DNA of 61,181 nucleotides, the filler included, from Dugesia japonica (taxonomy: Eukaryota): the NCBI GenBank assembly GCA_001938525.1. It is 6 parts of 6 records of this genome, joined end to end, with 100 filler letters (N's around TTAATTAATTAA, not from the genome) between each part and the next. Parts side by side here need not be neighbours in the genome. Positions count along the whole stretch, not along the records: positions 9,400 to 20,637 come from MQRL01544515.1; 5 more parts are not named here. One strand, given 5' to 3'. Made by a program: the position numbers and the translations under genes. The notes beneath the pieces are model-generated. The model was given only the letters and a program-made list of their open reading frames with translations, was not told the DNA's origin and did no database searches. Positions 5,200-61,114 of the stretch are shown one piece after another; positions within the stretch are counted from its first letter, which is position 1; each line of letters starts with the position of its first letter.

Positions 5200-7020
5200 A
5201 ATACAGATATTGCTTGAACTTTACAAATATGTGTACCGCTAATAGTATTGACTTGTCACACAGTACCTTTTTTCATGAGCTATCAAATATCTGGATCTAT
5301 ACGCTATTATCACTTTCTTTTCATTTTCGCATTGACTGCGCCGATGGCTCTAAAACTAGCGGCTTGTCTAACATCCACATCAGATTTTCCCATGGATATT
5401 CTAATACTGGAGCACTACATAATGAATCAAAACTGTTCTGGCATGCTTCTATCCAAACCAATAGTTTGCTGCAACCTCAAGTTGCTTCATATAAAAAACC
5501 TCCTATCTTTGAATAATCTTTTATGAAACTCTATGGTAGTTTGTTAGTCCGAGAAACAAAAGACGTTTAGAAGAACATTCTGAAATTATATCATTCGTAA
5601 TTTGCTGAATCTTAACTTCATTAGTACGTATATCAGCTGCACTCACTGTATGTTCCAAGAACAACACTTCGTTCTGTAAAACTTACATTTTTACGGGTTT
5701 ATTCTTAATCCCGAATCCATGATCCTGTTATCTCTAACATTTTGTCGTGATCTTCTAAGGTTTTTCAGTACTGCAGAATGTTGTCCAGATATACAATAAC
5801 TACAATGAAAATTAATCTCTTCAATAACTCATGCTTTAACCTTTGAAAAGTTGTTATAATTTGTTACGCTCTCATCTTCTTCTTTTGAATTTTCTATTTC
5901 TCCAGAATACACCAAGATTTAGTGTTCCTTCTACCAGACCAACTCTATAACATTGAACAAAATCTAAAATTATTAATTAAATATTAATTAAGTAAACATT
6001 TATTAATTAAACACAAATTAAACATCTGTCTTTTAACGGGCATTGATAATTTTTATGCAAATGTTATCCACAGCAATAACGTAGTCTCTTCTGGAGTTTC
6101 TCCTCACGAGGTTCAGAAAATCCTTTCTGTCTATTAAAATAATATCATGTCAAATATTTCATCGATACTGTTGGTTTAGGCCTCCTAGTCTTTATCTTAT
6201 TTTCCGACATCGCTGGTTGGATGTTACTCTTATATACTCTTTTTAGTAGCAAATTATTTATACGTATTTTCTGTTTACCCTGTCATACAGTACTATTTTT
6301 CATAAGCTAATAAATATCTGGATTTATGTCTGCTTATGTATAGTTTCACTACATTTTTATAACTCATCTCTTTTTGAATCATACAGATGTTTTACTTTTC
6401 AGCCATTCGTTGAAAATGTTCCTTATCCTTGTAAATCTTTATTAGTGATTTCATTTAATTTCGATATCAAGACGCGTTGTCAATGTTTCTCTCAACTTTG
6501 TATTTTTCATTATCTTTGAGTGTTTGTCCTTAATCATTTCATCTTTACTTAATCCCGATTTCATTATCTATCAGATTTCATATTCTGATTTTAAAGGTTG
6601 CAAATTTTTCTCTAGTCTCTAGTTTCGTCATTGAAAATTCTAAAATCAGCTCTGAAAATGATTTTTTATCATAAATGTGTCTGTGAACAATCAAATAGCT
6701 TCCTCCGTTTTAACCTCAATCATTTCGAGATCTTTTCAAAGAATCCTTGCTTCTTCTGACTATAGTAAATTTGAAATATCCAACAAACTGAAATCATTAA
6801 TGATAGTTCATTGCTCGATATCCTCGAAAAATTTGGAAATTTCTTCTGCGCCTTTACCATAATATTTTCTGACATTGAAATTGATCAATTTTTGTACTTT
6901 TTTGGTAATGTAATAAAATATATTTCTGTTGGCGCTGTTCTCTTGTTACTACAGTTCATAGTCCTGACGAGATTGCCAGTTACAATATCCCTGTCATCTA
7001 TTATAATTGAACAATAACCA
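5200..7020 (-). mobile_element. Degraded Gypsy LTR retrotransposon: gag (~6030-7000) with zinc knuckle, and RT/RNaseH remnant (~5200-5810)
   Basis: KYYGKGAEEISKFFEDIE gag-like start; decayed CCHC knuckle RYCCG*HLHKNYQCP at ~6037-6081; VIVYLDNIL (YxDD-like), FIKDYSKI, WIEACQNSFDSLCSAPVLEYP. Confidence 0.75.
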
Positions 7021-7200
7021 AATACTTAGAATATTTATTAAATATAAATTGTAACCTTAATTCTTATTATTGAAACAATGTTATTTTAAATATCCATAAC
7101 ATTATTAAAATAATGAAAAACATTAATTTTATTAAGGGTTTTATTTAAATTAATATAGAATTTTGAAACATTTCAAAGACAGACGGATAAGTGTTTAAAC

Positions 7201-8690
7201 CATGGGTATCTAACCTTTGACTGTTTGTGGGCCAAATTGCAAACAAAAAAAATTTCTATGCCACACATAAAATTTATTAGGGAAAAATAAAAAAGGATTT
7301 GTGTATTTCTATTAAAATTAAAAGGTTTGTATATAGTTCTTTAATTTGAGCAATGTATGCATAGATACGTACATATAAGTTTTAAAATAATAAAGGTTTC
7401 GTTTTATTTAATTTGGTTTTCATAAAAAATGGGAAAAATCACTTTAATGAGAAGGATGTATTTTTTTGCACAAGTAATTCAATATCGGGTTCAATAGACG
7501 AATTTGCTATTATTAATGCATATTCAAGATGTTTGTCAGTGAATTTTATCCTATTTTTGCTTTTTGCATGTTTCATTTTTGAAAATAATTGTTCACAAAT
7601 ATAGGTACTGCCAAAAGCTGAGAACATTCATAAAGTATGATTATGAAAATTAGGATATTTGTCGCGTGGTATTTAATCCTTTAAAATTCTAGTAATGAAA
7701 TATTTCCAAATTTGTCTTTCAGTTGAATGTCACTTTGCAGTTCAATGCATTCCATTTGAAGATACGTTATTTATATTAAGAGAAAATGGGGTAGAAAATG
7801 TTTTAAAATACTCTTCATTTTTATGAAAATCTTGGAATCTACTTTTAAACTCTTGAATTAAATTAAAAATTAATACAACATTTTTTTCATAATAATTAGA
7901 ATCCATAGGCTGACGTGCAGCCAAAGTACTGAAATGTGTAAAATCGTTTATTTTTATCTGATTGCGCAAAAAAAATTTACTTTTTTCAAATTTTATTACT
8001 GTCTGAAACAAATTGTTTACAAATTGATTTTTTTCGTTGAAGTCTCAAATTAAAATCATTCAAATTTTCTGTAATGTCCACTAAAAAACCTAAATCTAAA
8101 ACCCAATCTCTGTCTTCAAATTCAGTAACAGCTTTTCCTTTTGTATTTATATCTATTTTATTTCAGTTCTCAAATTGTAAATTCTTTTGAGCAATTTTCC
8201 TTTACTGAGCCATCTTACTTCTGTAAAATAAATAACATCTGCAAATTCAGTGTCCATTGCTTTAAAAATTCCTGGAATTGTCTATGATGAAATCTTTTTG
8301 ATCTTATAAATTTAATGGTTTTTATAATAACGCTTACACACTTTCCATTTTTAAAAATTTTCCACATGATTGCTCTGACGTATAATACAATGATGGATCA
8401 TCAAGATTATATTCCCGGTAGCAACAGCTTCATTATGAACCATTTTAATGAGTCCTCCTTTTTACCAACCATTGCAGGTGCTCTATTGGTTATGATAGCT
8501 GATAAATATTTTATAGACAAGGAAAGCATTTGCATGGTCGTTTTTAATGCATCAAATAAATCTGTAGACGTGGTTGTGTTTTCTAAAGATTCTAAAGCAA
8601 CCATTTCTTTAGTGATGTTATAATTTTCATCAATTCCTGGGATAAAATTCCTAATTGTGCCGTATCGGAAGCATCAGTACTGTCGTCTAA
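7201..8690 (-). mobile_element. hAT Buster/SPIN-type (GTF2IRD2-like) transposase remnant with one terminus
   Basis: LDDSTDASDTAQL, TNRAPAMVG, YFTEVRWLSKGK, FGSTYICEQLFSKMK motifs; terminus CATGGGTATCTAACCTTT..GTGGGCCA at 7201 preceded by nnnTAnnn-type target GTTTAAAC (7193-7200). Confidence 0.92.
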
Positions 8691-9299
8691 GTCTTAGACG
8701 ATTTAGACTTTGCATTTTCATGTTCAGTCTGGCATTTTGAACAATAACTAAAGTCAGTTTTGACATACCATCAGCATAAGAATGATGTTACCCTTTTCTA
8801 TATATTCAATACAAAATCATATTCTAATAAATCGTTAATCAAAGTCTGAAACTGCAGCATAATTGGTTTTTTGAATTCTTTATAAATTCTAGAGCTTTGT
8901 AATCGGTTTTCGCGACAAAACTTTTCTCATAAAGATAATGCCGAAAATATCGAATAAATTCATAAAAAGCCAAAAACTCATTCCTGGTCACGCAATATCC
9001 TTTTTCATGAGCGTTTTACTACCTTGATTCATATACAATAACGACTTTCATACCGTTTTGTGATTTGCTCAGTACAGCACCAATTCCCGGAAAAACTGGC
9101 ATCAGTATCCAGCATGAATTGACCTTCTGAATTAGGATACCCCAGTACAGGAGAGTTACAAATGGCTGGCTTGATTTTCTCAAAACTCGTCTTGCATTCC
9201 TTTGTCCACATTATTATGTGCTTTTGACTTTCGGTAGCAGCATATAAAGATGTAGCAAGTTGCTAAAATTCTTTATAAATTTTCTGTAACAATTTTCAA
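8691..9299 (-). mobile_element. Gypsy RT-connection/RNaseH remnant abutting the truncated hAT element
   Basis: WTKECKTSFEKIKPAICNSPVLGYPNSEGQFMLDTDAS, then HSYADGMS (NADxxS-like) motif. Confidence 0.9.
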
Positions 9300-9399
9300 N
9301 NNNNNNNNNNNNNNNNNNNNNNNNNNNNNNNNNNNNNNNNNNNTTAATTAATTAANNNNNNNNNNNNNNNNNNNNNNNNNNNNNNNNNNNNNNNNNNNN
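9300..9399. other. Artificial contig-joining spacer (44 N + TTAATTAATTAA + 44 N)
   Basis: Six-frame-stop 12-mer at 9344-9355 inside a 100-nt N block; identical block recurs four more times. Confidence 0.97.
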
Positions 9400-10125
9400 A
9401 AATTATATTTTGTATTTTTGAAATAATTAATAATAATCAATAATAAAACTAATAATAATAATCAAAAATAATAAACAATAAAAATAATCAAGAAACATAA
9501 TCAATAATAATAATAAATAAAATTATGAATAATAATAATAATCAATAATAATAAATAATATTAATAATAATAATAATCATCAATAATCGATAGTGTAGCA
9601 CCTTCGTAGTGATTTTATTATTATATTACAATGAATTTAATCAAATATCAAAATAATAATATCAAAAAATAATTTCTAACTATTGATAACGAAACTCACC
9701 AAGTCATATCGTAATTTNNNNNNNNNNNNNNNNNNNNNNNNNNNNNNNNNNNNNNNNNNNNNNNNNNAAATTTGAAAATTGTATTGAAAAAATGATTTTA
9801 TCAATTAAATAATTTGAAAATTATTTGTAAAAATTCAACAAAATATTTTAATAAATTTAGAATTTTACATTTAAACAAAAATTATTATTCCAATTAAATT
9901 ATGAATTTTATTTTCAAAAATAATTTCTAACTATTGATAACGAAACTCACCAAGTCATATCGTAATTTAATCATTTCAGACAACTCCNNNNNNNNNNNNN
10001 NNNNNNNNNNNNNNNNNNNNNNNNNNNNNNNNNNNNNNNNNNNNNNNNNNNNNNNNNNNNNNNNNNNNNNNNNNNNNNNNNNNTCTATTAATTTATAATC
10101 GATTGCTATCAATAATTTTTCATAA

Positions 10126-10392
10126 TCAGGAATTTTGGAAATATAATGATATGCGCTGGAATATTTCTAGAAAACGATTTTTATGAATTGAAAAAAAATT
10201 TATAACCCGAATAGGATAAATTTTAAAAATTTCAAAATCTTTCAAAAGGTTAATATGGATTTGTGCCAGACATCTATAACCTTCAATATATAATTCAAGT
10301 TCTTCAGGCTTGTATTCATTAAAATGCTTGTTAAAATCATTCCAATCTATTTTCTTTTCACTCCAAACTAATATTTTATTTTTTTCTTCCAT
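10126..10392 (-). CDS. Short orphan ORF (88 aa) in the virus-like cassette
   Basis: ATG-started, uninterrupted ORF with globular-looking composition, co-oriented with neighbouring ORFs; no family recognised. Confidence 0.35.
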   Translation of the reverse strand: MEEKNKILVWSEKKIDWNDFNKHFNEYKPEELELYIEGYRCLAQIHINLLKDFEIFKIYPIRVINFFSIHKNRFLEIFQRISLYFQNS

Positions 10393-10937
10393 CTTTTCAT
10401 AAAAGTTTTCAACACACTTAATGAATAAAATAATATTTTAAAAGTAAATAATTTCTATAGAAAATTAATTTATAATAAAAAATTTTAATTACAACACAGG
10501 TAGGATCCTTGAGCAAATCTAGAAAATTGCTTTTAAGACTATCTTTTAAATCACTATCCATTCAACAAATGTGAATATTTTATATCCGAAAATGTTTTAA
10601 ATATTTGCAGTTTTTTAAAAATATTCAAGTATTTTAAACAAAACAAAAAATAACCTTGAAAAAATATTTAATTTTAATTATATTTAGCTCAAAATTTTGT
10701 GCAATATTTAGTAAGGTAAATATATATTAACTTTCAATATTATGCTCTATTATGTCTATCAGTATTTTTCAGTCAAATTACNNNNNNNNNNNNNNNNNNN
10801 NNNNNNNNNNNNNNNNNNNNNNNNNNNNNNNNNNNNNNNNNNNNNNNNNNNNNNNNNNNNNNNNNNNTATCAAGTAATGCATATTTAAAGTTAATGATAA
10901 TTTTCAAAATTTTCAAAATGATGAGTTTTTGTTGGAT

Positions 10938-11165
10938 TTAGATGCAAGTTGGTTTCTTGGAAAGAGGGTGAGTGGGGGAAAATAATATACCTAATAGGGG
11001 AATCATGAAGGAAATAATTCCTCCAGAATGTCCTTCAGAATAACTAAAAACAATACTGGTATTAATAATAAAATAAATATCACTGTTTTCGTCTAGGAAT
11101 ACGCCCTCTTCTTGTTTAATAACAACTTCTTCATAATCGGAAATTATAATAACTTTTTCAGTCAT
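10938..11165 (-). CDS. Short orphan ORF (75 aa) in the virus-like cassette
   Basis: ATG-started ORF, acidic N-half and hydrophobic C-half; no family recognised. Confidence 0.35.
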   Translation of the reverse strand: MTEKVIIISDYEEVVIKQEEGVFLDENSDIYFIINTSIVFSYSEGHSGGIISFMIPLLGILFSPTHPLSKKPTCI

Positions 11166-11340
11166 AATTTTTTAATAATAATAATTCAAAAGAAAATGAA
11201 TAAGGATTGCAATATATAATATATGTATAATAAAATACTGCAACGTAATATTTCAGTTATTTGAAAATTAAATAACTAAATTTAAATTGATATTTTTTGT
11301 ACTTAAATTGTCCTTGTTTTGCCTCCGCGTTGCGAATTTT

Positions 11341-11791
11341 CTAAGTATTTTCAAGTAAATTAAAGAAATCTGAAGTAATATTATTCACATATCCCTGAAA
11401 ATACAAATTTTTAGTCCAAGTGTTACTNNNNNNNNNNNNNNNNNNNNNNNNNNNNNNNNNNNNNNNNNNNNNNNNNNNNNNNNNNAGGAAATAACCCTGG
11501 TTTGAACAATCAGTTGACTATTCTTGCTAATTTATACAAATTTATTAAAACTCCCATATTTACGATAATTTTTAATGATTGTAATTGTAAATTCTTTATA
11601 TCATAGGGTTTCAAATCATGCAGTTCCAATGGTTTCTTACAACCCATTATTCCGCATTTTCCTGATCTGAAGAATATAATTGTATATTTGTCACTTTTGA
11701 CTTTGAATTGACATGGTTTGGCAATAGGTAAACTCATTTTCTTTGTTACTTCTTGCGTCACTTTACCTCGGTAATTAATATTGGTTATCAT
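11341..11791 (-). pseudogene. Compact TATA-binding-protein-like gene (~150 aa, two TBP repeats), disrupted
   Basis: MITNINYRGK..YTIIFFRSGKCGIMGCK (TBP LIFxSGKxxxTGAK)..LQLQSLKIIVNMGVLINLYKLARIVN*LFKPGLFP (YEPELFP), 58-nt gap, then VTLGLK; in-frame TGA at 11510 and a probable frameshift near 11410. Confidence 0.8.
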
Positions 11792-12277
11792 AATTAATGA
11801 ATTTGCTGAGATACTTTTGGGGATTATTATCACAATAAATCATCAGTGCGTGAGTTTGAAACAATTGATTTTAATAAACATAATAATCCCAGTATATTAT
11901 CGTTATAATTTTTCATCTTATATATCTTAATATGTTTACTATAAATAAAATTATATTAATAAATATGCTGGGTTGCTAGGCTTTTTTATGTTGTTTTAAT
12001 ATTCGATTTTATTGCTTTTAATTTCATTCTCTTAATCATAACTGCTTTCTCTTTCGATTATTTGTACTGTCCGGGGGATGACACCTAACAACCACAGAAA
12101 TTTTTGGTACTCTCTCTAGTAACACGATCCCCCTTTTCCCGGTTCCAGTGGGACTACGCGGTATCCAGTCTTAGTTTTCAATTTCGTTGAAGTCTGACTC
12201 TCAAATTGTGGATGTTATTGTTCAATAATATACTCTTTGAATACAACACTTTATGAATAAACTTTATTTCATAACAA

Positions 12278-12649
12278 TCATTCGTTGATATTAATAATGT
12301 CTTTTTCTTGGTTGATTTCTTTGACTGATTTAGATACTTGGGTAAATGTGCGAACGGTGGATATCAGCACTCCTTCCCGATCAGCATACGTCTTGATAAT
12401 ATCGGCCAAAGCCCGGCATGTATGCGTTAGTGCCAGCTCTCTTTCTTTCATCTTGTCCATTTTATCCCTGAGCTGTAAATTTCTTTGCTGTAACTCCACG
12501 ATCTCACTTTTTAATTTTCGCTGTATGGCGAACCGTTTGGCTTTAATGTCGGTCATAGATGTATCAGTGAGATATAGCATTTGATAAGTATTCTTAGATA
12601 AATAATTTATTAAGATGTAAAATCGTTCATTAGTTAACCAGAACTTCAT
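12278..12649 (-). CDS. Coiled-coil orphan ORF (123 aa)
   Basis: Open ORF, raised GC, basic stretch plus heptads (KAKRFAIQRKLKSEIVELQQRNLQLRDKMDKMKERELAL). Confidence 0.55.
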   Translation of the reverse strand: MKFWLTNERFYILINYLSKNTYQMLYLTDTSMTDIKAKRFAIQRKLKSEIVELQQRNLQLRDKMDKMKERELALTHTCRALADIIKTYADREGVLISTVRTFTQVSKSVKEINQEKDIININE

Positions 12650-12786
12650 AAGTTAACTCATTATAGCTTAAGGTGAAATTTATCTCTAATACTTTAAACA
12701 GAAAATTAAGACCATAAATTTATTAACTAAAATTATATTGCTGATTTCACAAAGATCACACTATTGTTTCCACAATATCTACTGTC

Positions 12787-13184
12787 TATTCCAAAGGTGT
12801 AAGCACTTGCTGGAGCACTGTTTCAACCATACATGCTAGTCTTTCCGCCTCGCGTTGTGTTGTTCTCATGGACTGAATAACTATTTGCTGCTGCTTGGCG
12901 AGTTCTGTTACTCTTATTAACAATGTTACTAGTTCCTTTTCACGCTCCTACTTCCATCTAGTAATCTCTGTCACTTGTAATTGATGTTGGCTTTCCTGGT
13001 GTTCGACGTGTATCTGCAGAGCATTAATCCTCTTTATCTGTTCGGCGAATTGCTGTCGTTGACTCAATATCTCCTCTCGCATCTCCGTTATCTTGTCCTC
13101 CTTGACCTGTAGCTGTGCCTGAGTAATCCACCAAAGTTCGACGTCGGTTCCCTCCGTGGTCACCGAATCCCACAACGGTGGCAT
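12787..13184 (-). pseudogene. Coiled-coil orphan ORF with one internal stop
   Basis: Frame continues past the TAG at 12948 as EREKELVTLLIRVTELAKQQQIVIQSMRTTQREAERLACMVETVLQQVLTPLE*; Q/E-rich heptads, GC well above background. Confidence 0.55.
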
Positions 13185-14336
13185 ATTGTTACATGGTGTT
13201 GTCTCGAATGTATATCCGGCNNNNNNNNNNNNNNNNNNNNNNNNNNNNNNNNNNNNNNNNNNNNNNNNNNNNNNNNNNNNNNNNNNNNNNNNNNNNNNNN
13301 NNNNNNNNNNNNNNNNNNCTCAACATAAATATCTCTATTCAATTTATTTTAATTTTAAAGAATGAAATGGGTGTTACCACGAGCTCTGATCGATTAAAAA
13401 TCACTCGTCATTACGGATGAGGTTGGGCTCCCGATTTCCAATCACAATTCATAAGCAATTCATCTCATATGCCGCTTAATATATCTCATTGATTGATATG
13501 CTGCATCTTGATGACCATGTTTGTATTCATATATTATTTGTGGAGATAACCATCCTCCTCCGAATAACGAATGATCCATCGGCCAGCTCAAACTATTATA
13601 AAATTTTAGTTGCATAAATCTATAAAACAAAACTAATCATTATAAAATTAAAGTGATAATATTTTCATAAACATTTGCAATAATTATAGACAGATAAATC
13701 GTTAAATATAGAATAATTAGACAAGAACATGTAATAGTATGTCAGGTCGAATTCAACCACCACCCTCTCAATCAAACTACTAGTCTCTCAGTATCATAAC
13801 GGTTACATTAACACTTCATTACCAAATTACCAAATTATTACAAATCGCTTTCTACGTTTTCACCATCAATTCATCATTCATATATCATGATATCATCTCT
13901 CATCTCTCATTATCATTGTCATTATTAGGAATCGATAACATCTCTTCTCATAATCATTGTCATCTTTCGTAATCATTAATATCTTTAGTAATTTAATGGC
14001 GTAATGGTGGATGATCTCGAAATGAAATTACATTCGGATCTCTGAGTACTGATGTCCATCGTTGCCTGCGTGACCAGTCAACGAGGAACACCGTCTTAGT
14101 CTTCTGATCATTTAGAAATACAAATAAAATTACTTTGTTTTCGTTTGATAATCACTTTCTTAAAATGGCTTCTAGGTTCTTTCAACTATAAGAAAACTAG
14201 CGCTCAACGTTTTAAGAGATTGAGTTTTTTGTGTGTTTTTTTGTCTAAAATCGTTTGCTTTTATACTGAATTTTAATGTCACATTTTGACAGCTACTNNN
14301 NNNTGCCACTTGAAATTTTTAGAAAACGCAGCGAAT

Positions 14337-14600
14337 CGTGCGGTGCTCACTCGCAGATTCTGTTACTGTGTCCAAATTTGGTCGTGCTTTTTTATTCATA
14401 TGGTTACTCGCATTTGATATATAAAAATTTTTATCGTTATCTATGATCACCGGTGCTCACTCGGCATCATATGCTATAACAAACCTCACATTCACTGTAG
14501 ATAATGTGCGGTGCCTACCCGACACATATATTATTTACTTAACGATGTGCGGAGCTCACCCGTCACATATCAATTTAATTTCTATACATAATGTGCGGTA
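14337..14600. repeat. Five spaced copies of a GC-rich imperfect hairpin motif, consensus TGTGCGGTGCTCACYCG(ACACA)
   Basis: Copies at ~14337, 14450, 14504, 14545 and 14591 (partial), with unrelated AT-rich spacers. Confidence 0.75.
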
Positions 14601-16072
14601 AAAATAATGTAGGTTCCAACGTGCAACGGTGCCGATGAAATCCATGATCATCGGACAGGCACGGAAAAAAAATAATAATATTTATTACAAATAATAATAA
14701 TTTTCAAAGTCTGTTTTTGACTTTATAAATAATGATAATTACATGAATATTTATAAANATTTTATATAATTTAAATTTTTTCATTTAACTTTTTATCATC
14801 TTTCATCTCATATAAATTTCATTTTAGAATTCCACTTTTTTCTATATAAATAATAATATTTATACGATAATAATAATTTTTATTATATTTATCTTATAAT
14901 AATAATAATTTTACATAGTAATTATTTAAATACTTTTATAATAATAATACGATTTTCCAACTCATTATAATAATTTTTATACCTATTTTAATTACAAATA
15001 TAATACTGATCTATTTTATATTTCTTTTCTATAATAATTCTAATTAATTTGCCGAAAATTTTTTATGAAAGTATTTTTGTTTTAATCTTACTTTTTTCAT
15101 TAATTACTTATTATATTCNNNNNATCCCTTTTTTAATATATTGATACTTTTATAACATTCATATAATTATACATAATAATATATCGCATATTCCGAAGCT
15201 TTTTGATTTCCTTTCTTCGTTTATCTCTTTTTATCATTTGTGGCAAAATTCAGATTTTAGTTCTATTTTCTTTTTATTTCGTGAACCGTAGTTTATTTAA
15301 TTATTATTTCTTTATTTCTACCTTTATCATTTGAGCATTCATGCTTTAATTCTTTGATTATCCTCTTCTCTTTTACTACTACTATTTTCTTTATTACTTC
15401 ATTTCTACTTGGCGACATTATCTCTTGTCTTTGCTAGTTCCTTTTTATTTTACACATAAATTTCAATAACTGGTCTGTTTCAGCCCAACATATATGTTGG
15501 GTTTTCACGAATTTAAAATGATGTTATTACTGTAGGGGCACACTCGTGAAAACCACAAGCATTTTAACGTCGTGTGTCCCTTACACGCTCTCGGTTTGGT
15601 TCCGGTGACTTTTTCCGGTGCAATTTCGTATCATTTATCACTTTGTCTTTCATATTTATCATCTTTACAAATTTAAACTTGAATAAAAATTTCTGATAAA
15701 TCAGTATTTTATATAATTTATTATTCAATTCATTTATAATTAATAACAAAATAATAACTCAGTTTGATATTCAAAAACTTTATTACTTTCAAAGCAGTAC
15801 CATACAAATAAAATACTCTATTTTATTAACAACAAAAGAAGAAATTGCATGAAGATTTACGTAAAAAATCTCATAACCCCCTCCCATCCCACTCATCAGT
15901 ACACTCTGACATCCTCTGATTCTTCTCATAACACTTTGTAAGATTTAATTGATCATCATCGAAATTTTTATCGTAAGATTTATTATTATTTTATTTCAAA
16001 GGGTTTATTTTTTTTATTTTTAATTTTAATTTAATACATTAAGATTCATTTTAATTTCATCTGATTCTTCAT

Positions 16073-16605
16073 TCAAAATTTTAATGTTAAAATGTCATTC
16101 GTGATTGATTCCATCTCATATTCCAAATAATTGATAAAATCTAACAATGATTTAGTACGATAACAAATCTCTTTACAAAGATGATCTTTCATTATATCAT
16201 TAAACACTTTGTTGATCATATATCCCATTTCAAAATATGGACAACTTGTCGGATTCTTGTCACATGTTCTCATGTGATTTTCTATCAAACCCAACTTATC
16301 TGTGAATTCACAATATTTACTTCAACATTTCGCAACAATTTCTGAAAATCCAATGTTAGTTGGATAATTAATAACACCATCTTTAATTTTGACCAATGTA
16401 TGCAACTGCAAAAAGCATTACAAATTTTCCAAATCATCTAATTATTAACTTTATTCATTAATTGAAATTTATTTTCTTTGAAATAAATTTCCACATAGTC
16501 TCAAATATTTCATTTGTCATAAATAAATGATGTCTGAAAAAACAAATCATCGGAAATGCAAACAGTTTTCACAAAATTTCATCATATTATCAGTGTAATC
16601 AATCA
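16073..16605 (-). pseudogene. TRAF/SINA-type zinc finger gene with probable decayed RING
   Basis: KC*SKYCEFTDKLGLIENHMRTCDKNPTSCPYFEMG..MKDHL followed by a helical tail; upstream FCENCLH..LCGNLF resembles a frameshifted RING. Confidence 0.6.
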
Positions 16606-16874
16606 TTTTAAAATTATTTAAATATTAAATATTTGTAATAATATCATTATTATTATATAATACTAATAAATTAATAAATACCTGGGATTTATTTTCGTTA
16701 TCACTTTTATCGATTTCCGATACACTTTCTACTGTGAAATCATTCTCATCAATTACTAAAATTTCATCTCTNNNNNNNNTTAAATAAAACCAAATTTCGT
16801 TCTGATTGATATATTTCCATAATTTATTCCTTTTATAGATTTCGTTAATAGATTTCAAATTTTTTTTATTTTTT

Positions 16875-17120
16875 TAAACTCCTTTTTATCAATATAAATA
16901 AAATCTTTTCAACTCCTTTTTATCAATATAAATCTTTCAACTCCTTTTCATCAATATAAATAAAATCTTTCAACTCCTTTTTATCAATATAAATAAAATC
17001 TTTCAACTCCTTTTTATCAATGTAAATAAAATCTTTCCAANTTTTTTTTATCAATTAATAAAATCAATATAAATAAAATCCTTTCGAACTCCTATTAATC
17101 AATATAAATAAAATCTTTTC
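16875..17120 (-). repeat. Tandem repeat, ~32-33 bp unit x~7
   Basis: CAACTCCTTTTTATCAATATAAATAAAATCTTT units; minus strand reads KDFIYIDKKEL. Confidence 0.88.
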
Positions 17121-17322
17121 AAAATGTTTTCAATTTTCTTTGTCATCATTGAACAATGTATATGCATCGTTCGATTTTATACCGAACGATGCACACATCT
17201 ACACACCAGCACATTTACTGGCCTCGTTTAAGGATNNNNNNNNNNNNNNNNNNNNNNNNNNNNNNNNNNNNNNNNNNNNNNNNNNNNNNNNNNNNNNNNN
17301 NNNNNNNNNNNNNNNNNNNNNN

Positions 17323-17376
<54 letters not shown>

Positions 17377-17556
17377 TCACTTCTACTAATAATAATATAA
17401 CTCATCATATAATATTTGTTTTCCAAGCTCATTTCAAAATTAATAAATCTGTACAACCATAACTCATAATCATCACACCNNNNNATACCATTATCTACAT
17501 GATCTGCTCGATTTTAATTTTATTAATATTTGTGTACTAGCCCAACATCATATATA

Positions 17557-20120
17557 TGTTACGGTGAAACAACCGGTTATTTAAAAGGAAAAAGGAGACG
17601 GGAAATTGGAATCACAAAATAACACCGAAAGAGCCGGAGAAAAACGAATTAACCAAATATATAGAACAAAATCGATAAGCTACTATAATACATAGGGTAA
17701 AGGTAAAACCAAGAAAAAAATGCAGGCCATCAGAAGAAATAATTGAATCCAACTCAATCATGATAATTAAAGGAAAAATCAAATTTATATTGTTAAAACA
17801 AACTAATTTATTATTTCAAAATAATTAATTAGGAATGAAATATCAATTAATTTCATTAAAAAAATAAATGCAAATTAGGTCAAAATCAGTTGTTCATGAA
17901 TAACTCCACTCTGGTTAGTCCCAGAATCTTGTGGTAAAAAAAACTGGAAAGAGTTGTTACCTGGTCAATGGGATTTTGCAATTGGAAAACGCTATTATCA
18001 TCAGAGGGACTACCACAGGGGTTGGAAGATTGGGCCAATAATAACCCAAAAAATAAAATAAAAACAAAGACTTAAGCATCACATGGGGGTTTAAAAATAG
18101 ACGCCAATGACATAACAAAAAATGGTAAAAAATTCTCAGAAATCTATCAGAAGTCTATGCCAATAGAAAACTAGAAATCGGAATTAAAAATAGCGGGCCA
18201 ATGCTGATAAAATCTGGTTGCATTCAGAAAGCAATTTAAACCCCATGAAAACTTAGTAAATTAATCAATTTAATCAGCATTTTCTAACACAAAAACTCTA
18301 TTAATTCAGTATAAAGCGTGAACCTTGAGTATTATAAACGAAATCTGTGGAATCATCAACAAGAAATTCGATACCTCCAGTGGTTTAATTATTATAAAAT
18401 TAACAAGTGAAATTATTGAAGATTTTAGAAAAGAAAATCGGTAGATACCAAAAATCCGGAGAAAACATTTCTAAATCAAAATTCTTCTCTTTATTACTCT
18501 TGTTGCAGCCAAGAGAAAATTAATAATAAGTAAGCATGCTTCTACTTAATTATTATTTGTTCATAAATGTTGTTTGTTATAATTGTTAATAAATCTTATT
18601 AGATTAAATTTTAGTTATTAGTGTGGAAATTGCTTATTCCCATTAAATTAAAATAATTATATCGATCTTACTCAGGATTTGTCATCCCATAATATCACGA
18701 TCCAATTGTGAAATAATCTAGGTATTCATTCCTGTATTTTTATGGGAATAAAATTCAAACTAAAACAACAAACTAACCAGGAAATTTTGCATGCAAATCT
18801 AATCAGAAAATTTTATAGCAGTATACCACAAATCTAACACTTAAAACAATCATGCAATCACATTCACATCCTTTTAATGAGTCGATAGTTCCACACATTG
18901 CCTGTTGACACACATAAATCAACAAAATGCGAACAAGTAGAGATACATACATCGTCATCACACCGATCTCGATACACGCATTTCGGTAACTAGATAGATG
19001 GAATATTTTCACTGTTGTATCCAACGCTATTTGTTGACTTACACAATTAAATGATTTTCGTCTATGAATCAGCCACATACTCGATTAACATGAATACCAC
19101 TGAGGTCAGTGGCGTCCTTATTATGGCTGTGTTAACATCATTACTGTTTATCAAATCAATGTCAGCCACATAGTTCAACAATTTTTTTTCTTCGCTCAGG
19201 TTGTTATCACCTATGCAAATTGAACATGCCAATTAATATTAATTTTAGACGGATTATTTCGGAGATGATCATTACTACTAGTATCACTAACTCTATCATT
19301 GCATTACTATCCTCATAACTATTAATATGATTAATACCGTCATCAAAATTATACTTTAACAATTAGTATTTCTATTAATGGTCATATTATTGTCATAACT
19401 TTCATCACCCTAACTGATAGTATTAATATTTTGATTTTCCAATAGAATTATGGTATAATCATTAAGCAAACTGATTTTATTTGATAATTATTATCACTAA
19501 ACTTAGTATCGATATCCGGTGCATTATACATTATTAATTGTTACTGCTATCTTATTATTACTAACCATCCTATATTTATTCCCCGATTATTAAGTATTAC
19601 TATTAACATCTTTAATATTATTATTATTCCTGATGTATTAGAAGTATTATTAATGACAGTTAAAAGATGAATCTTGCTGATACCATCAATTTGATGAAAT
19701 CATTGACTCCATAACTTTCCTTATTGAGAACATCATTAATATTAAATTCTAAATCGGGTTGTTAGAATCAATTTTGTTTTCGTCGTAACTCGTAATTCCG
19801 GACAATGATTTCAATAACGTAAATATTAAGAGCTATCATCCTCATCGGAATTGGGTAGGTTATAGTCACCAACCCTAATGCGGTGGTCCCAAATTCATTA
19901 ATATGTAAAATTAAATTTTAAAATTCTATTTAGAAATATGTCTGCGAAACTGTACTACTTTACTCTTAATTCGAAAGGCTCGGAAATCCGCACGGCTGAA
20001 ACAACTTATCGGACATAGATTATTTCCTAATCTAATAGAACATCCCGACGAAACCGATTTAGCCTACTTCGTTGTAATGTTCCCCCTACCATTTCCAGTG
20101 GACCTTGATGAAGTGTGACA
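17557..20120 (+). mobile_element. Long (~2.56 kb) LTR-like sequence related to the 42417-44731 solo LTR
   Basis: Starts TGTTACGGTGAAAC after (TA)n, ends GTGACA; colinear blocks (start, CCAAT boxes, TATA, GTTGCAG..AATAAGTAA, IVTxP ORF end) shared with the reverse complement of 42417-44731; no TSD seen. Confidence 0.6.
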
Positions 20121-20222
20121 ACCGCCTGCAAAACAAAATAACTGACATGCTTGATTTAAATAAAAATAGTTTAATCATCATTTATTTTATCATAATAGGT
20201 TTTTTTTGTCATTTTATTATCA

Positions 20223-20558
20223 ATGATTTTTATCATAATTATGTCTTTTTTTCTTACGTTGATCATCACTGTAGAAATTAATAATAATAGGATGGAGCAC
20301 AAGTGGGAAGTATTATTGAACAGGCGCACAGGATGTACAGTATTTAAGAAATACATTAACCCTCATGACTGTAATGCGGGCATCTTTGCTGACTACTCGA
20401 ATCTGTCTAGTGAAGATGCAGATAATGAGAGAGAATGGGCTGCGGCGGAGCGCCAAGCTTTTTATCAGTGGAGCTGCCCAAATGAATTTGGAAAGATTAT
20501 TATCCGAAATATTGAATGGTTAAAGAATTATAAGGAGGGGAATGTGAGATGTGATTAA
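20223..20558 (+). CDS. Orphan ORF (111 aa) with hydrophobic signal-peptide-like N-terminus
   Basis: Uninterrupted, GC-elevated, complex sequence with 4 Cys and 4 Trp. Confidence 0.5.
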   Translation: MIFIIIMSFFLTLIITVEINNNRMEHKWEVLLNRRTGCTVFKKYINPHDCNAGIFADYSNLSSEDADNEREWAAAERQAFYQWSCPNEFGKIIIRNIEWLKNYKEGNVRCD

Positions 20559-20637
20559 TTATAAAAATGATAATTAAATATTTTATGTTATGTAATTGTA
20601 TGTTTGCATGTATGCCTGAAAAATCTGATATGTTTGA

Positions 20638-20737
20638 NNNNNNNNNNNNNNNNNNNNNNNNNNNNNNNNNNNNNNNNNNNNTTAATTAATTAANNNNNNN
20701 NNNNNNNNNNNNNNNNNNNNNNNNNNNNNNNNNNNNN
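20638..20737. other. Artificial contig-joining spacer
   Basis: TTAATTAATTAA at 20682-20693 flanked by N runs. Confidence 0.97.
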
Positions 20738-23649: not shown

Positions 23650-24900
23650 TTTTACAATTGCAAGTATTACGAGAATAATTGTTGGACGTAACCATTGACC
23701 GTTTTTCGGAATTCATTTAAAATAAAAGCTTCGATCAAAATTTGTTTGATTTAATATTACAATAGTAATTTATTTTTATTAAATTTTAATTGGTTAATTT
23801 TAATTTTTATTCAAATTTAATTATTTAATAATTATAAATTACATTGATTTTAGGATTGTCTTTAATAAGTAATTCTTCGTGTATTTTTCTATGAAGTGTA
23901 GAAATATAGNNNNNNNNNNNNNNNNNNNNNNNNNNNNNNNNNNNNNNNNNNNNNNNNNNNNNNNNNNNNNNNNNNNNNNNNNNNNNNNNNNNNNNNNNNN
24001 NNNNNNNNNNNNNNNNNNNNNNNNNNNNNNNNNNNNNNNNNNNNNNNNNNNNNNNNNNNNNNNNNNNNNNNNNNNNNNNNNNNNNNNAGTGACATTTTTC
24101 TTATTGTATATATTTTTACCATCACAAATGCATTTGAGACCACAAAAATTCTGTCTTAGTTTTTGTAATTGGATACCTAAAGGTATTTGCTTTTTAAATA
24201 TAATTCTTGGATGTTGTTTGAGTTTTGATTTTTTTTATTATATTTTGCATAATTTGGTTACATTTCTCATTAATAAAAGGTAATTTAATTACTGTGTTTG
24301 TCTTTTGTTTGATTATATTTAATTTTGTATTCGTGGATAAATACTTCTTTAATTACACCAATTATCTGGCTGATGGTAGTATTACTACTCCAAGGTAATA
24401 TATTTCCACTGTAAAATGGTTGCATATATAACTGGGTAGTTAATATTTCACCAGGTTTCTTTTGGATTAAAGTGTCCAAAAAAGGAATCTGAAAGTCAAT
24501 TGATTTCTCCAAAATAAATGTAATGTTATAATTTATTCTGTTCGCTAATTCTAAAATGTTCTCTAGAAGAGAATTAGTTACAAAGAAAATCTAAACTATA
24601 GATGAATTTTCTTGTTTGATTTAAAAATTATTTCATTTTCAATGAAGGTCATAAAAATTATCGCTATAATTGGAGATAAATTAAAAAAAGGTTTTTAAAC
24701 AAAAAGCTGGTCTAGCAATTGGTAATAATTTTTACTGCTGAATCAAGTTATGAGTTTATAAATTGATAGGAATCTATAAATTTGATAGCTGGTAATTTAG
24801 TTTTATGCTCTATTAAGCAAAGAGACCTTTCCATTGTTGTTATAATGCAATTCAGACTCAATTGTGGGAATTTATTTATTCCATGTGAGGCATACATACT
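23650..24900 (-). mobile_element. Penelope-like element, 5'-truncated: RT C-terminus, linker, (gap), 3' terminal repeat
   Basis: LSPIIAIIFM, IPFLDTLI..TTQLYMQPFYSGNILPWSS; sequence matches the copies at 31945-32580 and 37555-38030. Confidence 0.9.
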
Positions 24901-25099
24901 TCTGGTAAAGAAAAATCTTCTTTTATCATGAATATTTATTAAATAAACAATTCGATAACACAGTTTCTAAATAAATTTACAATCATAACTTTAGAATAAT
25001 TTCAATAAATTTACAACGGAAATAAAACTTAGTAAAATGGCCAATATTCCAAAATAAAGTAATTATGGCTAAAAGTTTTTACCAAGCTTTCTTTTTCAA

Positions 25100-42416: not shown

Positions 42417-44731
42417 TGTTGGGGTTCTACCTGAGTTTGGAAAAAGGTGACTGGGGAAAAGCAGTCCTCAGGGGAACCCTTTCAAGAATTTAACCCTACC
42501 GTCCCTATGGTAGGTTTTCAGTTTATTGNGGTTGACCTTACCCTTGATGGAAGGTGCACACCAATAAACCTTTTGTTCGGGTTCTATATTTTCCCTATGG
42601 TTATTTTGTGGTAATTAAAAGTCTTTACTATTCTAATCAAAATGTTTATTTGACAATACATAGTTATAATAAATTCAAGGCTTCTGGATCTAGCCATTAG
42701 TCAGGGGATGTGACGATAAGGTTAAAGGTCGCAATATCTTCGTCATCATCCCACTGAGTCGTATTTGGATTTCCCAGTTGACGGGACAAGTCGAAGATGT
42801 ACTGTTTGAGGAACTCTATCTTACGTTGAAGGAGGAGTTTGTTTTCGGTTTCTAGAGCCTTAGTTTGGGTGGCTAAATCGAATTGCTTCTTTACGACCAG
42901 ATCGAGTTTTTTAATTAATCGATCGCGTTGTGCTATCATTATCAATACTAAGGTCGTCGAAGTTAATCGTGGTTGTACGGGTAATGATGAAATGTTAGTC
43001 ATCAGTATTATGATACGAAAACTAGTAATAATAAGAATAATCTTAAACTGATTAAGGTCGATGTCATCACGAATAATCATAATTTTAAACTTTATCATTA
43101 TTTTCTCTGAGTATAATAGATAATCATTTTATTAATAAAATTAATATAATATCACTAATTGTTAGATTCAAATTGGTTGCAACGCGGGGTTTCCTTAGCA
43201 ACGAATATATCGCTATATCAGTTATATTGACTACCTTGTGTGTGAAAATTGTATGTTGCTGTTGTGTTAGTGTGTGAGTAGACATTTCCGCAGATCAACT
43301 ATACTCCTGACAGATTTTCATGTTCTACTGGTTAGAAATATGCAATTCATCAACGGCTGTTAATATGCAAACTTCGTCGTTAATTTATTAAAAACTATTT
43401 NATTCTGAGGCACTCGATAATGCTTGCAGGGAAATTGGAATTTTCACTCGACATAAAAATCATGGATTATTTCTCAGTTAAGCTTGTTAGAGAATTTAAG
43501 AGTAGATTCAAAACAATTATGATCATTTTATCTAACATTGAAATTTGTGTCACCTGATTATAGTTCAGTTATAGGCATATAATAAATAAGATATAGGAAT
43601 ACAATTACCAAATTCATATTAATTTTTGTAGATCATAATTTATTAAATCTTTTAACAGTTAACAATTTCACACTGATTTTATTAAATCTAATTAAATAAC
43701 AGTTAACATATTCACATTGATTTTGTAGAACATAATTTATTGACTATCATAAAATTACAATGATTAATAATTTGAAATTAATAATTTACTTATTAATAAT
43801 GATCAACTTCTGCAACGGGTTTCCTTTTGGCAAACTTGACAATTCCGATCCTGAGACTGTTTTGAAAATTGGTGTAGAATAACTTTCTAAAGGGTAATAA
43901 TTATTTGGAATTCCGGGTGGTATTTTACCTTCTGCACCGAGAGTTCTATAACTTGTTTATCGTGAACCGACAACAATCGTGATTTAGTGATAGTTGATAT
44001 AACTGATAACTTGGTTTAATTCGCACTACTTTAGTGGTGATACTGGATGTCTATTATCTTGACTTAATTGAAATAATGATATCTATTTCTTCTAAAACTA
44101 GGGGTCCTTTTATAAGATTTTCTTGACACCCCAACTCGGTTTAGATTTACTGGTATTTTTAGACCAGCTCTTTTCTAATTTTATTGGTGTTAGCACCAAT
44201 TTTCTGAAAATCTCTGACAATTTCGGTGCCATGATTGGCAATTATTTTTAGAGCNNNNNNNNNNNNNNNNNNCTTTGTTTTATTTTTATTTTCTGGCCGC
44301 TCATTGGTCGAATCTTAGAATCCCTACCATACCCCTCTGGAAGGTGGAACGTTTTTTCTTTTTAGGGTCCTAATTGCACTTGACTATTTTCTTCTCGATT
44401 TTTCTTGTTGGAATATTTTCTGNNNNNNNNNNNNNNNNNNNNNNNNNNNNNNNNNNNNNNNNNNNNNNNNNNGAAAAACAGATTTTCATCTAATTTTGTT
44501 TGATTTTTTGTTTGAAATTAATTAATTTTCCATATTAATTAATTATCTTCCATAATATTTTTCCTTGTTAATTCTTTTTGTTTATTAATTTTTCCTTAAT
44601 TATGGATCATATGTTGCTTCTATTTACCTTGCATTTTCTTTATTTTAACTTCATATCCTTTTATGGCCTTTTTTGGTGCTTTATTTCTCCTTTGTTTTAT
44701 TCTCTACTTTAGTGGGTGTTTCACCCCAACA
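42417..44731 (-). mobile_element. Solo LTR, ~2.3 kb
   Basis: TGTTGGGG...CCCCAACA 8-bp terminal inverted repeat, TATA 4-bp TSD on both sides; CCAAT boxes and TATAAAA (~44108-44114) on the minus strand. Confidence 0.8.
42697..43098 (-). CDS. Coiled-coil ORF (133 aa) encoded inside the solo LTR
   Basis: Open ORF; heptads RDRLIKKLDLVVKKQFDLATQTKALETENKLLLQRKIEFLKQYIFDL; acidic tail WDDDED. Confidence 0.5.
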   Translation of the reverse strand: MIKFKIMIIRDDIDLNQFKIILIITSFRIIILMTNISSLPVQPRLTSTTLVLIMIAQRDRLIKKLDLVVKKQFDLATQTKALETENKLLLQRKIEFLKQYIFDLSRQLGNPNTTQWDDDEDIATFNLIVTSPD

Positions 44732-51780: not shown

Positions 51781-51836
<56 letters not shown>

Positions 51837-52236
51837 ATATTATTATGGGTGCTTACTAGATATCTGTTAAAAGTTAACGATAAAGAAGGAATCACAAAAT
51901 TAGGTTAATATATCTTAATATATCATAAAAAGCTCTTATTAATTAATAGTTCAAAATCATAAGTAGCCTCTATTTATCGGAAACGATAAATCCAAAAGTA
52001 ATTTTTTGTCCATTGTTATGTAATAAGTTTATATATGCTTTAACATAACTTTACTACTAAATGGAAATCATCCAGCATAATAGCATTTTAGAATAGTTTA
52101 CTGATAAAAGAAATTATATTACTGATAATTTTAGTATTATTGGTTAGAAATGAAATACTAATACTAAGAAACGAAAGGTTAAGTACTGCTAAACATAATA
52201 GCCGTTATAATGATAATTTACAATTTTGCTTTCAGG

Positions 52237-52842
52237 TTATGAGTATTTTGTGGTACCCGAAATTTGCTGAATTTGGCTCTTATAATATTGGTAACTTTTA
52301 TCGTATTTATTTAAATCTGAGTTTCGGTTTTTTATTTTATAATTTAATTCTAAGTATACGTTTTCTGTGTTATATTTTATCTTATGACTTGCATTTGGAC
52401 TAGAACTTTTTATTTTAGAGAATGTTATAGATATTGATTTTATTAAGTTAGTAGTAGATTTGGTTGTACTTGTTTCTGTAGGTATTTGTTTCCATAAGAT
52501 ATATTTTGGATATTCTGGAAATGTTGTTAGAGTAATAGTTTCCAAAACGCAAGCTACCCAATCAAAACCGCCAATCCAGTTGGCAGTGATGTAATATTTT
52601 ATATTGGGTTCTAACCCATAAAGTTCAACAAATCTTGTTTTATTGCTGATTTTAGTCCCTACTACTACGAATAAGTAGGTAGGTCCATAAAACCTTTTAT
52701 GCGAAGGAATTTTAAATGTGAATTGGCGTGGATATATGCCTATTTCTACTATATGCCAAGATAACGTTCTATGGGATAGATACGTAAATCTGCTAAACAA
52801 CTTGTTATGATTGCTAATAATATTACTAACATGATTGTCCAT
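52237..52842 (-). CDS. Accessory ORF downstream of integrase: FN3-like domain plus Ser/Thr-rich stalk
   Basis: Longest ORF in the window (201 aa); TLSW...VELYGLEPNIKYYITA resembles the FN3 LxGLxPxxxY signature. Confidence 0.55.
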   Translation of the reverse strand: MDNHVSNIISNHNKLFSRFTYLSHRTLSWHIVEIGIYPRQFTFKIPSHKRFYGPTYLFVVVGTKISNKTRFVELYGLEPNIKYYITANWIGGFDWVACVLETITLTTFPEYPKYILWKQIPTETSTTKSTTNLIKSISITFSKIKSSSPNASHKIKYNTENVYLELNYKIKNRNSDLNKYDKSYQYYKSQIQQISGTTKYS

Positions 52843-52868
52843 GAATTTTGTGATTGTGATCTGAGATT

Positions 52869-55800: not shown

Positions 55801-56350
55801 CCTTTTTTGGAACAAAACATTCGAGTACTATTGATATATTAAATTTTTTCACTAATTGATTATTTGGTTCAAAAAAATAGATATTTACGCTACGGAACCC
55901 TAATTTTACAGGCATTATACATTCACGTGAATATTCTATTTTTGTATTTGACTTTAAGTATAAATCATTTTTTGCTTTTTCATCATTTGTGGGGGGTGAT
56001 TTTGATAATTTATTATTTTGTAAATATATAACATATCCTGATAATTTTGACAGTAAATCCATTCCCAAAATTTAGTCTTGTACCTCTTGGTCTACGACTT
56101 GGAATGAGTGTTGTATATTTTCATTTTCTAAGGTAATATTGCAATATATTATATCCTTTATGGCTCGTGAATGATTTTAATTCCTCTGATAGGCTAGGAT
56201 CAAGATTATCTTTTTTTTTTGTTAAGAAATGTCTTTAATTATTAAGCATGCTGATCCGGTGTCTATTAATGAAGGTATATTATATTCATTTATTGATATT
56301 ATCATTGTGGGTGTGGGAGTATCTCCATTTATTACATATATCTCGTTTGA
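52869..56350 (-). mobile_element. pol: Gypsy pol pseudogene (protease - RT - RNaseH - integrase)
   Basis: LIDTGSA (56252-56263), SPWASPVV, RMCVDYRKLN, EKTAFVT..LYEFTRM, YMDA (mutated YxDD), TDASEYAVGAVL, NADALSR, CRACSIC, HPQSDGLVERFNRTL, FKGRF. Confidence 0.97.
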
Positions 56351-56499
56351 TTTTTGAGGTGTGGTATTTCTTATTAATTTTTCGTTTTCAAGGTTTGATT
56401 TTAATTTATTGACTTTATCTGTTTCTGATATATAAGGTTTTATTGTCGTAATTATTCAGTTCTATATTCTCATCTCTATTTGATAGATCGATTGTATAT

Positions 56500-57440
56500 G
56501 TTTGATTTTGTCTTTCTAATTTTCTGATTTTATCATGGTGTTTTTGCATGATTAGATGTTTTACAATAAATGTACATATGCATGCTGCTAGTTTTCATGT
56601 TGTACCAAATACTGAATGCAATTTTCTTAATGATAATAATTGATGGCATGCTAATTTTAACAAAATAAACAAATAATGTATTAACAAAAAAACGAAAATA
56701 CACTGCCTATTGCTTACGCTTTGCCTAAACATTTATCGATAAAACTTTGTATGACTCTTTTGCAGTGATCTACGTGCAATAATTACTCGAAGTTGAAATC
56801 GTCTGCTTGGCTTCCTTTATGAATTCTATCGATCATTATTGATATTATTTTTTTTATTACTATAGGAAACAGAACATGCTTTCTGGATTTTTCTTTCTTT
56901 CTGAGTAAATATGCCGGTATTTTCCATGTTGTATTGTCTGTCAAATACCATTTTCCTTCAGAGTTCCATCATCTCTAATGTTACTGATTTTTGTGCTGTT
57001 TCACAATCCGAAGCGGTAATCCAAACGTTGTCGTTTATTTTGTATAATGGGTCGAGAAGATTACTACGTTTGTTCATTTCTTTGGGTTTATAATTTTCAT
57101 CTGTTAGAATTCGTGTTACTGGTAATAAAAAGACCTTTTTATTATTATGTATCACTGGCAGTTCATTTGTACATTCCGGATGATCTGTTAAAGTAACTAT
57201 TGCTAATTTACATTTGAAAGTTACCAATGCTTCACCCACAATTCTTCCAAAGGTTCCTGCTTCTTCGAATAATAATGGTGTCATCTCGAATAGTAGCAGC
57301 TAATGCCATTTTTGTACTTAACCGTTCTCTATTTATTTTACAGTCACTTGATATTGTTTCATCATATAATTTTTCCATTTGATATATCAAATTGTGATAT
57401 GCAAAATCAAGTTTATTGTTTAAATATGAAACTTATTTGA
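56500..57440 (-). pseudogene. env: Class III fusion glycoprotein (herpes gB / chuvirus G-like) envelope, C-terminal half, located between gag and protease
   Basis: YLNNKLDFAY..DCKINRERLSTKMALAA..GTFGRIVGEALVTFKCKLAIVTLTDHPECTNELPVIHNNKKVFLLPVTRIL..PLYKINDNVW..NTGIFT..LFP, then a hydrophobic AIGSVFSFF membrane region. Confidence 0.8.
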
Positions 57441-57499
57441 TGTCCAATTTTTTCTGCTTGATCTTTAGAGCCTTTGATGAGTTCATTAGATATATTTAA

Positions 57500-60113: not shown

Positions 60114-60130
60114 CCTCACTTGGGGCACCA
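60114..60130 (-). promoter_or_regulatory. Primer-binding site complementary to an elongator tRNA-Met 3' end
   Basis: TGGTGCCCCAAGTGAGG lies 4 nt after the LTR end ...TCAACA; resembles the complement of CCUCAC...GGGGCACCA. Confidence 0.75.
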
Positions 60131-60134
60131 ATTT

Positions 60135-60800: not shown

Positions 60801-60879
60801 ATCAAATATTGGTTGAAATAAATAAATTGAAGCTGGTTGTTTGAAGAGAACTCACTAAGATGAGGAGAGAAGAAATTAT

Positions 60880-61098: not shown

Positions 61099-61114
61099 GG
61101 TGATATCAGCAAGT

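Follow-up and report, generated by a model that had tools for sequence, protein, structure and literature searches.

A broken mini-TBP gene of a Polinton-borne family in Dugesia japonica and a likely early-to-late switch in its intact relatives

The stretch of DNA analysed here, hereafter the window, comprises 61,181 nucleotides of the planarian Dugesia japonica (assembly GCA_001938525.1). An original prediction, made from its sequence, took the interval 10126-17240 for a single virus-like cassette of short minus-strand open reading frames (ORFs) without introns, perhaps of the Polinton/adintovirus kind. We found in this interval a broken gene for a small TATA-binding-type protein (mini-TBP), and the intact relatives of this gene sit beside Polinton core genes and lack an ATAAAC box that precedes the packaging ATPase of the same loci. 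We hold with moderate confidence that the interval is a patchwork, consisting of a spliced gene (10084-10601), a decayed accessory piece of a TBP-bearing Polinton (about 10.9-13.7 kb) and a separate TRAF-like pseudogene. Directly observed were the splicing of the first gene, the family and fold of the TBP and the Polinton setting in which it occurs; so were the places where relatives have the box and the damage to the window copy.

Mini-TBP and its Polinton-borne relatives

The window TBP gene (11341..11791, minus strand) comprises about 150 codons and is broken by a stop at 11510-11512, an assembly gap at 11428-11485 and a 3' frame change. Over 102 residues it is 74% identical to an intact relative, P0001, the 3' piece lying in a different frame. 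A protein search with the window TBP returned six matches of 147-158 amino acids (best 76%), a TBP profile gathered 207 proteins at E 1e-10, and the relatives pass Pfam PF00352. In a quick tree of 96 rows, where the window was represented by its N-terminal 93 residues, it grouped with P0001-P0005 (support 99) inside a branch of short TBPs. This branch includes all 12 core-linked rows and stands apart from seven cellular-type two-repeat TBPs (99 by the Shimodaira-Hasegawa-like approximate likelihood ratio test, SH-aLRT), while its inner branches are mostly weak. The model of P0001 has the TBP fold, with a predicted local distance difference test (pLDDT) of 96.7 and a Foldseek E of 3.5e-9. The TBP-like ORF of the original prediction was thus borne out by Pfam family, tree and fold, though the window copy is broken. 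The gene is real and a member of a mini-TBP family of roughly 150 amino acids. The window copy is unable to make a full-length TBP and is most likely inert. RNA over it was low on both strands, and almost nil over 12474-13907, which fits silence without proving it.

To what kind of element the family belongs was seen from its relatives. A metagenome scan yielded 32 TBP-family loci, of which 13 carry Polinton core genes (an ATPase or protease cluster); among loci of at least 3 kb the proportion was 9 of 13, and the other four of this size class, which lack core genes, measure 3-5 kb and hold accessory-type ORFs. Pfam, applied to 32 chosen ORFs of these loci, gave Pox_A32, rve, Peptidase_C5 and Endonuclease_7. 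Loci L007 and L010 combine an ATPase, an rve integrase and a DNA polymerase B (PolB) with an EndoVII domain, and L028 combines ATPase, integrase and protease, in one locus each. The labels hexon, penton and pX given below to ORFs of these loci are our assumption from position and size. A 408-amino-acid candidate for the double jelly-roll major capsid protein gave a mostly beta model at a pLDDT of 60.6 and no sequence match. No RNA polymerase gene was found in the TBP-bearing loci seen.

Further genes of these loci are recorded here in their own right. The commonest neighbour of mini-TBP is a conserved domain of about 115 amino acids without a family (L010:1788-2135), with relatives in 17 of the 32 loci and no match in the window scaffold 9400-20637. 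Others are a ubiquitin-conjugating enzyme (L007:225-719), a dual-specificity phosphatase (L009:4008-4316), a RING protein (L030:1710-2168) and, within one element, a pair of penton-sized ORFs in tandem that both belong to one cluster (L007:5616-7684).

The ATAAAC box and the proposed switch

We counted the motif ATAAAC in the 70 nucleotides before ORF starts of the TBP loci, a start being the first ATG; rows were left out if their upstream DNA was short, a duplicate or non-ATG (1 of 12 for the ATPase, 5 of 33 for TBP). The box was present upstream of all 11 ATPases, as against none of 28 TBPs and none of six integrases, with random windows at 4%. It was also found before 5 of 8 ATPase-adjacent ORFs, 3 of 4 hexon-like and 3 of 5 penton-like ORFs, 1 of 4 pX and 1 of 2 proteases. 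These counts come from related loci, near-identical pairs included, and are therefore not independent; this, the definition of starts by the first ATG, and the lack of a box within 80 nucleotides of any of the nine window ATGs inspected tell against the interpretation that follows. The absence at the nine window ATGs would be expected whether the region is early or accessory or has decayed.

We propose that in an intact element the mini-TBP gene, which has no ATAAAC box, would be made early by host machinery. The mini-TBP protein would then bind the boxes before the packaging ATPase and the capsid-module genes, and the box-bound protein would bring in host RNA polymerase II, so that expression would switch from early to late genes. 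Such a viral switch through mini-TBP and ATAAAC is likely, and we infer that the protein binds the box. In the literature covered, with supplements and Repbase outside its scope, nothing on a Polinton TBP switch was found beyond a mention in a figure legend. In the excerpts consulted of PMC8502044 and of the preprint bioRxiv 10.1101/697771, TBP is named in figure legends only. The legend mentions of TBP and TRAF in the excerpts of PMC8502044 fall in its section on non-animal datasets, one legend counts both among the genes of MELD viruses, and these excerpts, supplements being outside their scope, contain no passage on a TBP-driven late promoter.

For the timing of capsid genes in Polintons, which have no RNA polymerase, the widespread mini-TBP that such elements carry, matched by a box upstream of the packaging gene, offers a directly testable answer. 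Excerpts of PMC8532177 describe planarian knock-down data for the PIWI-interacting RNA (piRNA) pathway with de-repressed Polintons, which could test the switch. By itself the window adds little to this case, its copy being broken and core genes absent; its value is that it shows the TBP-bearing Polinton type to be highly repeated in a planarian genome, probably that of a model species.

Composition of the scaffold and reach of the likely decayed element

The window joins six small scaffolds by 100-base linkers at 9300, 20638, 29366, 40272 and 51681, and the interval 10126-17240 lies wholly inside one of them, of about 11 kb (9400-20637). Its features, together with the linker that closes this scaffold and the PolB relic beyond it, are as follows.

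10084..10601, minus strand: 5' part of a low-copy gene of no known family, spliced and transcribed according to RNA reads and contigs
10941..11165, minus strand: intact ORF of 75 amino acids, no family, just downstream of TBP; best database matches only E 0.06
11341..11791, minus strand: broken mini-TBP gene
12278..12649, minus strand: intact coiled-coil ORF of 123 amino acids, no relative found
12786..13220, minus strand: second coiled-coil-like ORF, one internal stop, 5' end running into a gap, GC 0.46
13370..13620, minus strand: frame-broken ORF relic, no family in Pfam/NCBIfam-type scans
14338..14562, no strand: four copies of a 16-nucleotide GC-rich motif in a high-copy non-coding stretch
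16040..16520, minus strand: TRAF-type zinc-finger gene broken by stops and frame changes, its RING part degenerate
16873..17065, no strand: 33-bp tandem repeat, six copies, almost no RNA
20638..20737, no strand: artificial linker (44 N, a six-frame stop, 44 N) ending scaffold 9400-20637
25168..25786 (24751-25786), minus strand: broken protein-primed PolB (pPolB) relic with an EndoVII-like domain (Pfam Endonuclease_7), on a different scaffold

The predicted ORFs are indeed present on the minus strand at their predicted positions, and in excess: eight ATG-started ORFs of at least 50 amino acids, as against 1.1 +- 1.0 expected from 200 local shuffles, none of which reached eight. The plus strand has three such ORFs against 2.2 in shuffles, which is no excess. 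Most of the minus-strand ORFs are damaged, with stops and/or frame changes in the TBP gene, the second coiled-coil ORF and the TRAF gene. The sequence is rich in AT and has (AAT)n tracts, and the description of the ORFs as separated only by short AT-rich spacers does not hold, as the interval also contains three long N gaps (10782-10867, 11428-11485, 13221-13318) and a mostly non-coding stretch of about 2 kb (about 13700-15800). Rfam and tRNA scans were blank, and NCBIfam and PHROGs gave weak matches only, all below any cut-off.

At the left end, the ORF at 10126 belongs to a spliced gene. Its exons are 10561-10493, with the ATG at 10561, 10416-10207, and 10166 onward into a gap at 9988-10083, and all three are open. 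Both introns are GT..AG and of phase 0; 10417-10492 was skipped by 151, 33 and 24 RNA reads of X12, X15 and X11, and 10167-10206 by 79, 29 and 15 reads of the same sets as well as by one RNA-like X9 contig. RNA 5' ends cluster at 10601, and the X12 first mates over the gene lie nearly all on the plus strand; taken with the GT..AG ends on the minus strand, this indicates that the RNA is a minus-strand one. Both introns are present in DNA contigs that have a depth of 6-12 and 0-2 differences. Since the X11, X12 and X15 reads differ from the window at 16 listed places, they are taken to represent a different allele or a paralogue. At all four listed places that it covers, the X9 contig equals the window sequence. 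No family was found in Pfam or NCBIfam. The original prediction had seen no introns, and two read-supported ones stand in its first ORF, which consists of spliced exons of an expressed gene. The gene at 10084-10601 is outside the virus-like piece.

For this reason the claim of a single viral cassette without introns, spanning all of 10126-17240 and linked to the PolB relic, fails at its left end, unless the element should itself carry many copies of the spliced gene. The cassette would account for the co-orientation and excess of the ORFs, and the PolB relic is of matching type, being 43-45% identical (E 6e-31) to the PolB of L007 and L010 and so of the same Polinton type. However, ORF 10126 is spliced and low-copy, and the PolB relic gives no linkage because the linker at 20638-20737 joins two separate scaffolds. 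We regard the single cassette as highly improbable. As a separate observation, the PolB relic adjoins a relic at 24288-24590 that by eye looks like a reverse transcriptase.

We then asked how far the decayed element extends around TBP. In DNA contigs of other copies, joints at 11251-11348, 11391-11519 and 12185-12324, together with one contig of organism B that covers 12150-12433, connect TBP with the 10941 side and with the first coiled-coil ORF. The 75-amino-acid ORF is probably an accessory gene of the TBP-bearing element, and the same is probably true of the 123-amino-acid coiled-coil ORF; it is on these contigs that we infer a shared element for TBP and its neighbours. A protein search with the 123-amino-acid ORF found nothing at E 0.001, and the 90-residue first part of the second coiled-coil ORF found no relative. 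In IMG/VR no locus was returned for TBP, the TBP alignment, the TRAF piece or either coiled-coil ORF, one scan counting seven relatives.

Read depth, which had been suggested as a check on copy number, showed that the region is clearly multi-copy and uneven, and that the spliced gene is low-copy. Summed contig depth is no copy number, as a conserved gene collects contigs from many subfamilies, and with this limit the sums at listed places came to about 100-2,300 for most of 11833-15962, to 7,000-19,000 within TBP and immediately upstream of it, to 350-440 at 11833 and to 16-128 at 13857-13868, with bin means of 30-130 over the spliced gene, as against 4-13 for single contigs. Bin depths of 1e5 over TBP were rejected as copy numbers, since single places give 7,000-19,000.

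To search for the remainder of a Polinton, tblastn and 26 profiles from the TBP loci were run against the window. In this scaffold they matched only TBP; their other matches were PolB at 25168-25786 in the next one, and a gypsy integrase. With Pfam six-frame scans of parts of the scaffold added, no transposase, reverse transcriptase or Polinton core gene was found in 9400-20637, in agreement with the original prediction as to the first two. Protein-primed PolB is not in the scaffold, rve integrase, packaging ATPase and protease had no match there (the Pfam scans being blank for the parts covered), and for a jelly-roll capsid the hexon-like and penton-like cluster profiles gave nothing under E 0.2. 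As to terminal inverted repeats, there was no long pair among the inverted pairs listed, and a second end need not lie in the scaffold.

Several findings weigh against a Polinton piece with accessory genes at 10.9-13.7 kb. The scaffold shows neither a Polinton core gene nor, among the inverted pairs listed, a terminal inverted repeat, so that a single gene carries the assignment. TBP excepted, the ORFs of the window have no match among those of the 32 loci, and the five closest TBP relatives (P0001-P0005) are on short contigs and stand outside the gene-context counts. Inside TBP the depth (7,000-15,000) is higher by a factor of ten to a hundred than at most places listed for 11833-15962, and TBP may therefore also travel without its neighbours. 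As the scaffold shows none of the testable features of membership, we class it as a Polinton-derived relic, and for 11 kb with gaps we claim that it derives from a Polinton, not that it is one.

The same depths suggest another explanation, in which a Polinton-derived mini-TBP piece was amplified by a non-autonomous derivative or some other element, while the ORFs on either side would be decayed repeats that have nothing to do with it. It would explain why TBP and the DNA immediately upstream reach depths far above those of the neighbours and why no other window ORF has a Polinton relative, and a short AG-rich tract at 12110-12117 resembles a Polinton end. In contrast, contigs of other copies link the DNA upstream of TBP to the ORF at 12278 and TBP to the 10941 side, and the depth excess may reflect the many subfamilies whose contigs a conserved gene gathers. 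We consider this explanation improbable.

Returning to the patchwork, its third part is the TRAF-like gene. The original prediction of a RING/TRAF ORF held for the TRAF zinc finger, which Pfam placed under its cut-off (zf-TRAF, E 0.097) and Atlas supported at 0.93, with 197 of 256 features and 17 of 30 matches being zf-TRAF. It did not hold for RING, which had no Pfam match in three frames of 15901-16640; neither RING nor MATH was detected in 15901-16640 or 13319-15900. A protein search with the TRAF piece gave nothing at E 0.001, and no TRAF was among its PDB sequence matches. Matches to an arenavirus glycoprotein in the PDB (E 0.05-0.7) were rejected as chance. RNA over the gene reached a depth of 401 versus 21 by strand in X12, and as these reads, of related minus-strand transcripts, fit only in part, related genes are transcribed elsewhere in the genome. 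Between the TRAF gene and the coiled-coil ORFs lie the depth dip at 13857-13868 and the mostly non-coding 2 kb. The TRAF-like gene is probably a separate copy of a repeat family, and its carriage by the same Polinton as TBP, which the original prediction had assumed, is unproven, no TBP locus having a TRAF relative; we think it unlikely.

If it were so carried, one longer Polinton accessory arm of about 10.9-17.2 kb would hold a captured TRAF ubiquitin-signalling gene, and only the spliced gene would be foreign. This fits the excess of ORFs and the co-orientation of all those from 10941 to 16.5 kb, as well as their broadly similar depth, about 100-2,300 at listed places over most of 11833-15962. 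No RNA read shows an intron joint inside 16077-16520. L030 carries a RING gene and L007 a ubiquitin-conjugating enzyme, both loci being TBP-bearing, and TBP and TRAF are both listed for MELD viruses in the legend excerpted from PMC8502044. On the other side, 13730-14066 and 14863-15694 are unbridged among the pieces listed, depth falls to 16-128 at 13857-13868, and a zf-TRAF relative occurs in none of the 32 loci. Excerpts of PMC6109357 and PMC7586133 moreover report TRAF-like genes as greatly expanded and expressed in planarians, and excerpts of PMC6431247 report that giant Burro long terminal repeat (LTR) elements carry TRAF-related ORFs. Like the carriage of TRAF itself, the longer arm seems to us doubtful. 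Somewhat less likely still is a planarian Polinton lineage whose one accessory arm united a mini-TBP switch on ATAAAC promoters with a captured TRAF gene and so helped to spread the expressed TRAF-like family. Taken together, the guess of a Polinton or adintovirus is supported for the TBP segment, whose family is Polinton-borne; it does not extend to the spliced left gene, which lies outside, and for the TRAF gene membership is unproven.

Other parts of the window call for brief mention. Upstream of the ORF at 16625, an 11-amino-acid repeat had been proposed; the underlying 33-bp repeat is real, but its unit is open in two of six frames, so that openness of a frame says nothing about coding, and with almost no RNA over it the peptide repeat is at most a putative protein. 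The 16-nucleotide motif is found in none of the 32 TBP-bearing loci, and its stretch, of high DNA depth, is possibly the regulatory or terminal region of some repeat. A 49-nucleotide match of 18553-18600 to L012/L027 was discarded as AT-rich low-complexity sequence. An intact ORF of 111 amino acids without a family (20223-20558, plus strand) closes the scaffold, with a summed DNA depth of 28,000-36,000 over 20275-20637. Another scaffold has an intact coiled-coil ORF of 133 amino acids without a family (42697-43098, minus strand). Dispersed repeat families of 50-120 nucleotides (D7, D12, D16, D19) have many window copies, at 660, 1700, 23647, 30115, 31543, 32476, 34792, 35966, 40201, 45817 and 49437. 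The last scaffold (51781-61181) is a gypsy element in decay. Its fusion glycoprotein, of the mononegavirus type (Pfam E 2e-13), sits between a gag zinc knuckle and a protease motif, both recognized by eye.

Comparison with known systems

The Asn, Phe and PELFP positions of the TBP saddle, which have DNA-binding roles, are kept in mini-TBP. In its model, P0001 shares the fold of cellular TBP (PF00352; PDB 2z8u, 1tbp, 1cdw) over its full length, with template modelling (TM) scores of 0.70-0.80. Unlike cellular TBP, mini-TBP has about 150 amino acids, no N-terminal tail, a degenerate first repeat, 16-24% identity and a separate branch in the tree.

With the expanded TRAF-like genes of planarians and the Burro TRAF ORFs, the window gene has in common a TRAF-type zinc finger, a multi-copy state and transcribed relatives. 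It differs from both in having no MATH and no detectable RING, and its scaffold has no Burro gag/pol. Burro elements have a knuckle-glycoprotein-protease order according to excerpts of PMC6431247, the same as in the gypsy element of the last scaffold, which is much shorter than Burro1. This shared order points to a planarian as the probable host.

In Polintons/Mavericks and adintoviruses, finally, the comparison bears on the main subject. The intact TBP relatives lie beside an A32/FtsK ATPase, an rve integrase, an adenovirus-type protease, an EndoVII-bearing PolB and capsid-sized ORFs, as in those elements, whereas the window scaffold, unlike them, shows no core gene and, among the inverted pairs listed, no terminal repeat.

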